64,000 nt of DNA, taken from the NCBI GenBank assembly GCA_024679065.1, contig JAGIQG010000007.1, positions 123,876,001-123,940,000 on the forward strand, given 5' to 3'. The notes under the pieces were generated by a model. That model had not been told where the DNA came from. It ran no database searches and saw only the letters and a program-made list of their open reading frames with translations. How positions within the stretch are numbered: the first letter of the stretch is position 1; every line of letters starts with the position of its first letter. The stretch comes from Sphyrna mokarran. Taxonomy: Eukaryota. Of the stretch, positions 12,732 to 38,956 are shown one piece after another. The translations under genes were made by a program, and so were the position numbers.

Positions 12732-13286
12732 TTCTGTCTGTTATATTAATAGCCCAGTAGCATAATAACTACACTGATGCTCACAAAATGACTTTAGGCC
12801 ATAGATTTATGGCCTGATAGGATTTAGCCTGGCACAGTGTAAAACATTGTATTGAAGAAGAGTGAAATAAAAATCCAATAAAGATGCAATGAACTAAAAA
12901 GATACAAAAACTGCAAACTCAGTAAATACCATTCTTCAATACAGTATCTATATATGTGTATGTATGTGTATATATGCCCCCAATAAACCTTGTTTTAATA
13001 TGAAATGATATGCAACTGAGACAGCATGACACAGTCTTCATCAAAGTATAGTTCTCATATAAATCCTGATTCTATAGCAGAGAAGGAATATGGCTTACTA
13101 TTAAACTATAAAAATTTTTTAATACGTATTAACTGTCTTGCTTTCTGATTGCTGATTGGAATGTGATAAACTTGAAATATTTCTACCAAGGTTATTTGAT
13201 GATGCTGACATCATGTACAAGCTAGTGAAGTTCCCTCGGAGAAAACTTTTATTAGTTTGAAATAATGGGATGAATTTGGATTTGAA

Positions 13287-14036
13287 TTGGGGTTCAGAAG
13301 AATGAGAGGTGGTCTTATTAAGATAAGTAGGATTCTCAGGGGGTCTGACAGAATAAGGACTGAGAGGATGTTTCCACTTGTGGGAGAGTCTAGGACCAGG
13401 GGGCATAATCTCAGAGTAAGGGGTTGCCCATTTAAGACAGAGATCCGGAGAATGTTTCTTCTCTCAGAAGGTCATGAATCTGTGGAATTCTTGATCACAG
13501 AGCTGTGGAGATTGAGTCATTGATTCAAGGCTGAGACGAGTTTTAATCAGTAAGGGAAATAGTGTTATAAGGATAAGACAGGAAAGTGGAGATTTTTTAT
13601 TGGTACCTTTCTAATCAAAAAAAGCCAGTTCAAATTAAGTCTAATCTTGGTCCCCATATGAGGGGTAAACAAGATCCACGTTGATGGAATGAGGCATTGC
13701 ATCCCTTCCTAGGCTTGATCTATTGCGTCATTTAGCCAAAAGATTGAGATGCCTTTGCATCATTTGCCATTGCAAGAAAATTGCATCAAGTAAACATTGG
13801 TTTAACCTCATTGGCTGCCCTGATCTTTTATACTAGCTTAGGCAAACCACCATCACAGATGTCAGCACACCACCCCAGTGAAATGGACTAGCTTCGTCCC
13901 CTGTCTGATCATGGTTTCACCCCTGCCAGTTAATTATTGAGACTTATCAAATCAGATCAGCCATGATCTCATTAAATGATGAAGCAAACTCGATGGACTG
14001 AATAGCCTACTTCCACTCCTCTATCTTATGATCTTA
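13287..14036 (+). mobile_element. CR1 LINE 3' end, split by the U1/U2-derived insert
   Basis: FRRMRGGLI...RMFPLVGESRTRGHNLRVRG; 3' UTR ggaaagtggag | tgagac...atcagatcagccatgatctc...gatggactgaatagcctac...cttatgatctta. Confidence 0.88.
13592..13937 (-). mobile_element. U1 snRNA-headed, U2-fragment-containing retroposed element (SINEU-like)
   Basis: Minus strand begins ataattaactggcaggggtgaaaccatgatca (28/32 identical to vertebrate U1 nt 1-32), further U1-like sequence to 13852; gcatctcaatcttttggctaa...agatcaag (U2 5' end-like) at 13752-13714; ends aataaaaaa. Confidence 0.8.
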
Positions 14037-14059: not shown

Positions 14060-15800
14060 ATAATTCATTCATTGAATATGAAGGGCAGAATTTTTATTGC
14101 CCACCTCTAACCTTCATTGACGAATGTAGTGAGCTTTTTTTCGTACATTGTTGCAATCTTTTTGGTGAAGACACTCCACAATGCGGTTAGGGAAGACGAT
14201 CCTGAATTTTGACCTAACTATGATGAATGAATAGTGATACGTTTCCAAGTAAGGATGATGTGTGGCTTGGAGGGGAACTTGCAAGTAGTCACTTTCCCAT
14301 GTGTCTATTGCCCCTGTTCTTCAAAGTCCTAAAGGTTGGAGATTTGGGAGATACAGCTGAAGGAGCTTTGCTAAGCTTCTGTAATGTATTGTAAATGGTA
14401 CACAGTTCAGTCAAGTTATACTAGTAGTGGATTGGGTGCCTGGATTTCTGGAGTTCAGTTCTTTTGTCCATGTTTTTAATGAGATCAGGAGCTGAATGGT
14501 CCAGTTGGAACCTACACTGAGCGTCAATAGCAGGTTATTGCTGAGTAAGTGTCATTTGATTTGATTTGATTTATTATTGTCACATATATTGGGATATAAT
14601 GAAAAGTAGATTTTCTTGTGCACTATACAGATAAAAATACCATCAATAAAGTATATAGGGGGAGGAATGGAAAAGAGAGGGTGCAGAATATACTGCTACA
14701 CTCCTAGTTAAATGGTAGAGAAAGATTAGTTTAAGATTAAGTAGGTCCATTCAAATATATGATGGCAACAGCAAAGCTGTTCTTGAGTCGGTTGGTATGT
14801 AATCTCAGACTTTAACATATTTTTCCCGATGGAAAAAGATGGAAGTAACAATGCTCTGGGTGCATGGGATTGATTTTGATGGACTTTAATTTGCCAGTTT
14901 GGATTTATCCTGCTTTTCACGGACAGGACGCGTGTACAATTTTCTATATTGTCAGGTAGATGCTAGTGTTGGAACTGTATTTCAACAGTCCAGAGCACAG
15001 CTCTTTAAGAAAACAGCTAGGATGACATTGCAACCAACAGCATTAAGTGAATACAATGCAATCTGCCATTTCTTGATATCAAGTGGAGTTCATTCCATTG
15101 ACTGAAGAATGATACCTGTAATACTGGGATATCAGAAAGAGCTCAAAATAGATCAACTACTTAGTACATCTGACCAAAAATGGTCGCATACACTTAATCT
15201 TCTCTTTTATAGTCTCATGCTAAGCTCCACCATCATTCAGGATGGGAATGCTCCTGACACCTTTTTCTGTTAGTTCTTTGGTTGTCCATCATCATTCAGG
15301 ATTGCATGTAGCTGGATAGCAGAACTTTGATCGGATCTGTTAGTGGCAGCATCACTGAGCCTAATCTACATGTTTCACATGTATATATCTTCATCATTCT
15401 GGCGCACATTTTCAAGGGTGCTGGATATTATTCCCATCATGCTCTTCTCCGTGTCATATCCAGCAAAAGTTGGTTCCCTTGCTTGATGGTAATGTTAGAA
15501 ACAAAAATGTGACAAGTCATGAAATTACAGATGGTGGTGGAATACAGTTATTCTGCAGTTAATGTCCACGGAATCTCATAGATGTCTGGTTTTGACATCT
15601 AGATCTCTATCTGAATCTATCCCATTTTGCCAGAAGATAGTATCAGAAAACAGGAATGTGTTCAGAGTGAAAATGGGACTTCATCTCCTTAAGAACTAAT
15701 GTGCAGTCAGTATTGTTACCAATACAACCATGAACAAAAGGATCTGTAACAGGGACGATTGTTGAGGACAAATTCAAGTCTGTGTTTTCTTTGTGCTGGT
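14060..15800 (-). mobile_element. CR1/L2-group LINE remnant (3' end plus RT N-terminal part), internally deleted
   Basis: 3' end tttattgcccacctcta...ttccaagtaaggatgatgtgtggcttggaggggaacttgca; ~14890-14950 reverse reads like CPVxxKQDKS..ANY (RT domain 0). Confidence 0.7.
14555..14872 (-). mobile_element. Rex1/Babar-type LINE 3' end
   Basis: (tttga)3 tail, ttattattgtcaca, and aagctgttcttgagtcggttggt (reverse: TNRLKNSF); matches plus-strand copy at 53000-53478. Confidence 0.7.
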
Positions 15801-38797: not shown

Positions 38798-38956
38798 NNN
38801 NNNNNNNNNNNNNNNNNNNNNNNNNNNNNNNNNNNNNNNNNNNNNNNNNNNNNNNNNNNNNNNNNNNNNNNNNNNNNNNNNNNNNNNNNNNNNNNNNNNN
38901 NNNNNNNNNNNNNNNNNNNNNNNNNNNNNNNNNNNNNNNNNNNNNNNNNNNNNNNN
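38798..38956. other. Assembly gap (159 N)
   Basis: Run of N. Confidence 1.

Follow-up and report, generated by a model that had tools for sequence, protein, structure and literature searches.

We identified in the genome of Sphyrna mokarran a dispersed family of short retroposons assembled from pieces of the U1, U4 and U2 snRNAs, represented by one insert in a window of 64,000 nucleotides (the whole stretch of DNA that was analyzed, to which the plain positions below refer). With fairly good confidence, we regard these elements as non-autonomous, likely copied by a Keno-like LINE of the Tx1 clade and likely transcribed from snRNA promoters lying ahead of source copies. Their sequences suggest a Keno-mobilized SINEU, the type of SINE with a U1- or U2-derived head, that borrows snRNA promoters.

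The insert comprises 346 bp (13592-13937, minus strand) within the 3′ end of a high-copy LINE, presumably CR1-like. The left part of the host (13270..13591, plus strand) reached a depth thousands-fold over its flanks in four other runs, and the right part (13938..14035, plus strand) had 16 matches in an evenly spaced 600-kb sample. Fourteen of these 16 host-repeat matches reach the junction, several of them from sister families. Because these related empty sites continue uninterrupted across the insertion point, the target-site duplication (TSD) of the window copy amounts to 0-1 nt. The preliminary description, which was based on the letters of the window, had reported an insert that splits a LINE 3′ end and shows no TSD, and the empty sites agree with it on both counts. 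Contigs of runs X3, X6, and X9 (organisms B, C, and D) bridge the 5′ junction of the insert, and the insertion is therefore older than the split of these organisms. One X3 contig bridges the 3′ junction too, and one X6 contig is ~91% identical over 747 bases; among the X12 pieces listed, none bridges an insert junction. The window copy is an old, decayed member of its family and is probably inert itself. Short pieces of other very-high-copy repeats adjoin the insert at 14242-14283 and 14554-14600, and a run of 159 N occupies 38798-38956.

Using the genome’s own U1, U2, and U4 genes (L031, L041, and L051) as references, we could assign nearly all of the insert, as judged by alignment, to snRNA-derived pieces, all on the minus strand. 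It begins with a U1-derived head (13851..13937) that covers U1 nt 1-96 with an 11-nt deletion common to its subfamily (type A) and matches the U1 gene at 71 of 85 positions (blastn E 2e-11 against the whole window; E 1.4e-22 for the family profile). A start at U1 nt 1 and a short deletion leading into later U1 sequence had both been described previously; the first 32 bases now score 30/32 against the genome’s own U1, compared with 28/32 against the reference used there. The head is followed by a partial duplication of U1 stem-loop I (13820..13855), consisting of U1 33-47 and a variant-U1 19-33-like piece. These matches are weak alone in the window copy (13/15 and 12/15), and the duplication is clear in type B, where variant-U1 1-51 precedes a second 12-35. 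Next comes a piece of the U4 5′ stem-loop (13799..13816; 16/18), which spans U4 23-47 in the family (profile 23/25, E 3.3e-4). An Sm-site-like AATTTT motif lies in 13761..13790, as seen in the sequence and the alignment. There, U4 110-119 matches at 10/10 positions (13773-13764) within a stretch private to the window copy, and the family-profile search gave no significant match to the U4 3′ part; the likeness of this segment to that part of U4 is no more than a hint. The U2 5′ end-like segment noted earlier is genuine and corresponds to U2 4-36 (13752-13709, 27/33) with a short internal duplication or 11-nt insertion. It leads into a U2-derived body (13632..13701), which covers about U2 32-102 and reaches the Sm-site region; in this body, U2 70-102 aligns at 13664-13632 with 27/32 identities (family profile against U2 6-101, E 3.2e-7). 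In the alignment, this body is partly doubled in many copies and single in the window copy. The insert ends in a short 3′ tail (13592..13631) that carries AATAAA and a terminal A-run (13601-13593), and its 3′ edge is common to the aligned copies. Hence, two elements of the preliminary description need to be replaced: its anonymous spacer is the duplicated U1 stem-loop I together with the U4 piece, and its “unique tail” is U2 of about 32-102.

Rfam by itself was not sufficient for the snRNA assignment; with single copies, it reported nothing at its cut-off and only U1 below it (E 0.76 for the window copy, and 7). A profile of 30 copies matched the genome’s own U1 (2-96) with 66.4 bits, U2 with 15.8, and U4 (23-47) with 5.9, and none of 500 doublet shuffles reached these scores. 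When one copy was folded, it scored z -2.65, and 1 of 100 shuffles did equally well; this is expected, because the hairpins are inherited from the snRNAs. A reading as an LTR was ruled out, given the alignment of the body to snRNAs and the terminal poly(A).

The insert had previously been proposed to belong to a SINE family rather than to be a single U1 pseudogene, with the possibility of a single genomic copy kept in view. Used as a query, it returned 1059 first-look candidates in the genome, 40 of which were scored and showed 70-89% identity, and two other family queries returned 2482 and 3912. In 30 fetched loci, homology was limited to ~350-400 bp between unrelated flanks, with the 5′ edge falling sharply at U1 +1 and the 3′ edge being rich in A. 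A 17-nt motif across the linker-U4 junction had 70 exact matches, compared with none for the control. Many dispersed copies thus share one architecture, sharp ends, and internal junctions, which confirms the family and removes the single-copy possibility. Sixty evenly spaced 10-kb stretches (600 kb) contained no copy, setting an upper bound of ~14,000 copies (3/0.6 Mb scaled to 2.77 Gb); therefore, the family probably numbers a few thousand copies.

One U4-U2 core carries exchangeable U1, variant-U1, or U2 heads, a feature absent from the preliminary description. Type A, which includes the window copy, has the U1 1-96 head with the deletion; type B sometimes bears an extra U1 piece in front of its variant-U1 head; type C joins a U2 1-36/40 head to an A-like core; and type D joins a U2 1-40 head to a diverged core. 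We aligned the cores of 109 of 112 copies, leaving out three that lack the 3′ part. The distance to the column majority was 14.9% for type A (n=45), 17.6% for B (n=22), 15.7% for C (n=4), and 5.5% for D (n=35), with the window copy at 16.9%. Types A, B, and C were intermixed, and type D together with two basal copies formed a clade (37/37, support 0.99). Judged by these distances, types A and B are older than type D, and also older than the partner LINE family described below. TSDs, which the preliminary description had not seen, are indeed missing from the window copy but are enriched elsewhere in the family. Among 84 loci, a contiguous 3′ end was present in 58 and a clear head in 46; 9 of these 46 older copies had a TSD score of at least 8, compared with 4.7% of mismatched pairs. 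Similarly, 13 of 30 type D copies scored at least 7, compared with 6.9% of mismatched pairs. Family TSDs measure ~7-17 nt.

We then asked where copies insert. Keno had received only a passing mention in the preliminary description, which did not include the insertions at U2 sites, and this mention was the key lead. Type C and D heads stop near U2 nt 38. A search for poly(A) followed by U2 39-55 found 4 exact matches (control, 0) and, with two mismatches allowed, 33 matches (control, 3). Nine of the 33 junctions follow a SINE core (six of type D, two basal to D, and one equidistant from all types), nine follow a clear LINE tail, and one more follows only the last motif of that tail. Of the remainder, three come after other sequence but run on into U2, two are U2 pseudogenes, and eight are chance-like matches, and L272 was left out of the classification. 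L309 duplicates U2 39-47. A pattern anchored on the SINE tail was confined to the divergent copy L209 and one tandem; U2 39-52 followed the tail in 2 of 30 U2-headed copies. U2 specificity is therefore loose here, and most copies sit outside U2. When poly(A) joined to the remainder of U1 was sought in two ways, one search gave 4 rows at 3 places (control, 2) and the other 0; no fixed U1 target site was found. At L207, L213, and L219, poly(A) and U2 from nt 39 onward are preceded by neither the SINE nor the partner LINE, and these loci possibly represent further U2-targeted families.

The LINE that shares this junction had 2236 candidates, with 86-91% identity between copies. APE (PF03372), RT (PF00078), and zf-RVT (PF13966) domains were recovered in five ORF fragments, and one copy runs over ~6 kb, with U2 2-47 as its head and poly(A) at its end. 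U2 5′ fragments, varying in length, were present at 13 of 15 LINE 5′ ends, and the sites concerned had no promoter homology. The closest named protein belongs to a shark record (76%, covering 34% of the query), and no named Keno protein was among the 24 matches. Still, its domains and its U2 junction make this partner LINE likely Keno-like. A U2-headed SINE lies within 1.5 kb of 4 of 30 LINE 3′-end loci, compared with no SINE in the 600 kb of evenly spaced sequence; in the reverse direction, just two of the 52 type A loci and none of the 28 type B loci have the LINE within 1.5 kb. The SINE and LINE tails show no homology, which fits poly(A)-dependent mobilization, a mode established for L1-type elements. 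The shared target suggests that a Keno-like LINE mobilizes the U2-headed branch; it does not extend to the subfamily of the window copy. Head-to-tail SINE-SINE, SINE-LINE, and LINE-LINE trains with U2 fragments between the members occur at L368, L323, L374, L370, and L212.

In the most serious alternative, the subfamilies with U1 heads, that of the window copy among them, owe their spread to another LINE without target preference (an older Tx1 or an L1), and the Keno-like element served the younger U2-headed branch alone. Among the 58 copies of the older types A, B, and C whose 3′ end is intact, none has U2 39-52 after its tail, an age gap separates types A and B from type D and the partner LINE, and the A and D majority sequences are just 73% alike. 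Conversely, type C combines an A-like core with a U2 head that stops at this very site (the A-C and A-B majorities are each 89% alike), L209 is inserted at U2 nt 39 although it is equidistant from A, B, and D, the U2 array contains older relatives of the partner LINE (about 71%), and the TSD lengths overlap. Overall, we consider a wholly different LINE unlikely. Within the Keno-like reading itself, since types A and B are older than the partner LINE family, their driver may have been another Tx1 or L1 family; for the window’s subfamily, this may be an older Tx1.

The transcription of source copies is addressed by snRNA genes that the elements have split. In a U2 array, at G000:C949:17389778-17390226, homology to the U2 promoter (85%, 81%) precedes U2 4-37; the core and its poly(A) come next, and the gene then resumes with U2 40-191 and the U2 downstream flank. 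In the same array, 3 kb beyond this gene, U2 46-191 follows a LINE tail. The SINE in the split gene is 80% identical to the type D majority and falls at the base of the D clade, which makes this locus, by its sequence, a relative of the source rather than the source. Promoter-anchored searches returned 7, 9, and 8 places. Three of them involve the elements. At L354, homology to the variant-U1 promoter (77%) leads into a decayed U1 5′ part, after which a type D copy with poly(A) precedes U1 72-164. At L342, U1 promoter homology and a similarly decayed U1 5′ part are followed by the LINE (alignment scores of 15-28 for these two 5′ parts). At L362, U2 promoter homology continues with U2 1-39, to which eight bases from the linker of type D and then the LINE are attached. 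All other places contained snRNA genes, whether intact or decayed, or fragments of promoters. Two promoter-bearing U1 pseudogenes, L343 and L353, have internal deletions that start near the end of stem-loop I and resemble the type A deletion.

Dispersed copies start at or just past snRNA +1, and promoter homology was absent upstream of all 58 older and 30 type D copies examined; a single 25-nt promoter match on the opposite strand, upstream of older copies, is chance-like. A classical Pol III SINE derived from 7SL, tRNA, or 5S is disfavored by internal T-runs of 4-5 in both SINE types tested, a tRNA search without a hit, and no Rfam family at the cut-off.

Together, these observations lead us to propose a cycle. 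A LINE endonuclease would insert a SINE copy into an snRNA gene, whose upstream Pol II promoter would then produce RNA from snRNA +1 through the element. The LINE would reverse-transcribe this RNA from the poly(A) of the element, and daughters would gain an snRNA 5′ fragment as a new head, yet no promoter. Such daughters would be dead unless they landed in an snRNA gene again, and each re-entry would add a new head. We infer each of these steps, that is, transcription from a captured promoter, mobilization in trans by the LINE, promoterless dead daughters, and head gain at re-entry, and a captured promoter as the origin of the window’s own U1 head would follow by analogy. Such a cycle would explain 5′ ends at +1, heads that end at the nick site, the moderate number of copies, and the presence of Pol III terminators inside the elements. 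Counting against it are the rarity of U2 sites behind dispersed copies, the failure to find a fixed U1 site, the few LINEs near type A and B loci, the age of these two types, the missing tail homology between SINE and LINE, the basal position of the split U2 locus, the missing TSD of the window copy, and the decay of the U1 5′ parts at L354 and L342.

Another alternative, which we judge slightly less probable still, retains a true SINEU whose heads arose by template switching onto free U1 or U2 snRNA during reverse transcription, with source copies driven by unrelated host promoters. Stacked, duplicated U1 heads with microhomology (L149, L152, and L155) fit such template jumps, as does the failure to find a fixed U1 target site, and template switching with flanking promoters is the case argued for crocodilian SINEU in the consulted part of its defining paper (PMC4494074). 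Against it, the U2 heads stop at nt 36-40, where the LINE has its target site, promoter-bearing split genes exist, and no non-snRNA 5′ extension is common to the 30 aligned copies. Template switching is a stronger explanation for U1 heads, including that of the window copy, than for U2 heads. Indeed, given that older copies lack the U2 site, that U1 offers no fixed site, and that types A and B are old, the U1 head of the window copy may equally be the product of a template switch.

Two further readings have next to no probability. A sum of independent chimeric snRNA retrocopies would accommodate the low copy number and variable heads, yet it is already refuted by the common diagnostic junctions: the three-RNA core, the internal deletion, and the duplications recur across 109 aligned cores, with subfamilies and a well-supported D clade. 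Equally implausible is a LINE 3′ UTR or internal deletion product, a possibility raised at the outset and compatible with the poly(A) end and with similar U2 heads at LINE 5′ ends; the body aligns to snRNAs, 30 copies have no common upstream sequence, and the SINE resembles the 6-kb LINE only in the U2 head (best other E 0.23), which refutes it for the partner LINE.

The family can be placed next to known systems, beginning with crocodilian SINEU. Like SINEU, its members are non-coding, dispersed, and shorter than 500 bp, with a U1/U2-derived head, common internal junctions, a 3′ poly(A), an occasional TSD (missing in the window copy), and recurrent addition of heads to a common 3′ part. These structural features make the shark family a variant of the SINEU kind, its descent being a separate matter. 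SINEU was defined from crocodilians, found there only, and linked to the Mariner-targeting Tx1-Mar, according to the consulted part of its description (PMC4494074). As described there, SINEU-1, -2, and -3 (Kojima 2015) are likewise short and poly(A)-tailed, with repeated U1/U2 heads on a common 3′ part, partial duplications in the U1 piece, occasional ~10-nt TSDs, and internal oligo-T; a Tx1 partner is deduced for them from a common target, as is proposed here for the U2-headed branch, and they too have snRNA-headed partner LINEs and thousands of copies (PMC4494074). In contrast, the same portion describes no U4 segment, derives the 3′ half of SINEU-1 from a non-snRNA source, names a Mariner element (Tx1-Mar) rather than a U2 gene as the target, and reports no split snRNA gene with a promoter (PMC4494074). 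A preference for Mariner-N4-type targets was not seen in the shark, where 30 copies lacked a common flank and the target found was U2. The shark family is likely independent of crocodilian SINEU, as its pieces match the genome’s own U1 variants.

As to the LINE, Keno is an APE-type Tx1 element that targets U2; in the consulted part of its description, U2 resumes at nt 39 after Utopia and Keno has the same flank (PMC4640811). The shark partner resembles Keno in its APE and RT domains, in its 3′ junction at U2 nt 39 (9-10 of 33 junctions), where U2 continues after both LINE and SINE, and in tandem insertions (PMC4640811). Unlike the SINE, Keno and Utopia are autonomous LINEs, and that part does not mention a companion SINE (PMC4640811). 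Utopia, an RLE-type element without APE, was ruled out as the partner by the APE domain.

Two other comparisons are more distant. snRNA retropseudogenes and U6/L1-type chimeras, as treated in the consulted part of the SINEU paper, also fuse snRNA 5′ fragments to other sequence and carry poly(A) and TSDs, but are one-off events, whereas here the junctions are fixed across multi-copy subfamilies (PMC4494074). SacSINE1 and the CmiSINEs of chondrichthyans are short retroposons of cartilaginous fish too, but with tRNA heads, CORE/Deu domains, and L2 tails (PMC5499810). The word snRNA is absent from PMC5499810, and an snRNA-headed shark SINE is mentioned neither in its consulted part nor in that of PMC7245038. 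The literature searches listed no report of a shark or U4-containing SINEU. An entry in Repbase or Dfam that already covers the family is a real possibility, if clearly the lesser one.

At slightly less than even confidence, we put forward a fuller reading: an uncatalogued shark SINEU lineage, independent of the crocodilian one and the first with U4, which Keno would insert into U2 (sometimes U1) genes, whose promoter would transcribe it and donate heads, so that the split genes would be fossils of this cycle. SINEs normally have their own Pol III promoter, and snRNA genes have external promoters. Since snRNA promoters are external, the transcription of SINEU was called an open question in the consulted part of the defining paper (PMC4494074). 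The shark family offers a testable route with genomic intermediates, in which targeted insertion into snRNA genes provides both promoter and head, and the split genes, if promoter capture is true, point to an answer. With this family, moreover, SINEU is no longer confined to crocodilians, U4 joins U1 and U2 as a source RNA, and the Keno LINEs that target U2 acquire a companion SINE.

Several further loci contain related sequences. The genome has two U1 gene types that are ~88% alike (L031-L039, and L040 with L346-L352), with different promoters and in separate clusters; both donated heads. L179 (G000:C938:18940358-18942431) is a 2-kb minisatellite of ~50 copies of a 40-nt unit from variant-U1 stem-loop I, with a near-identical copy on a small contig (C302:68748-70821). 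Its unit is the duplication unit of the type B head, and no SINE core adjoins it; as a SINE source or LINE promoter, the array was ruled out (no core, and two ORFs of at least 120 aa in its 10 kb). Downstream of a U4 gene, at a distance of ~480 bp and on the opposite strand, there is a divergent copy with a U2 head (the same copy in the overlapping loci L052:700-1021 and L054:1930-2250), and the U4 gene in L051 has a fragment of the partner LINE ~620 bp upstream of it. Finally, L280-L308 represent another dispersed repeat (~1000 candidates, 72-84%), which occurs downstream of a split U2 at L210.
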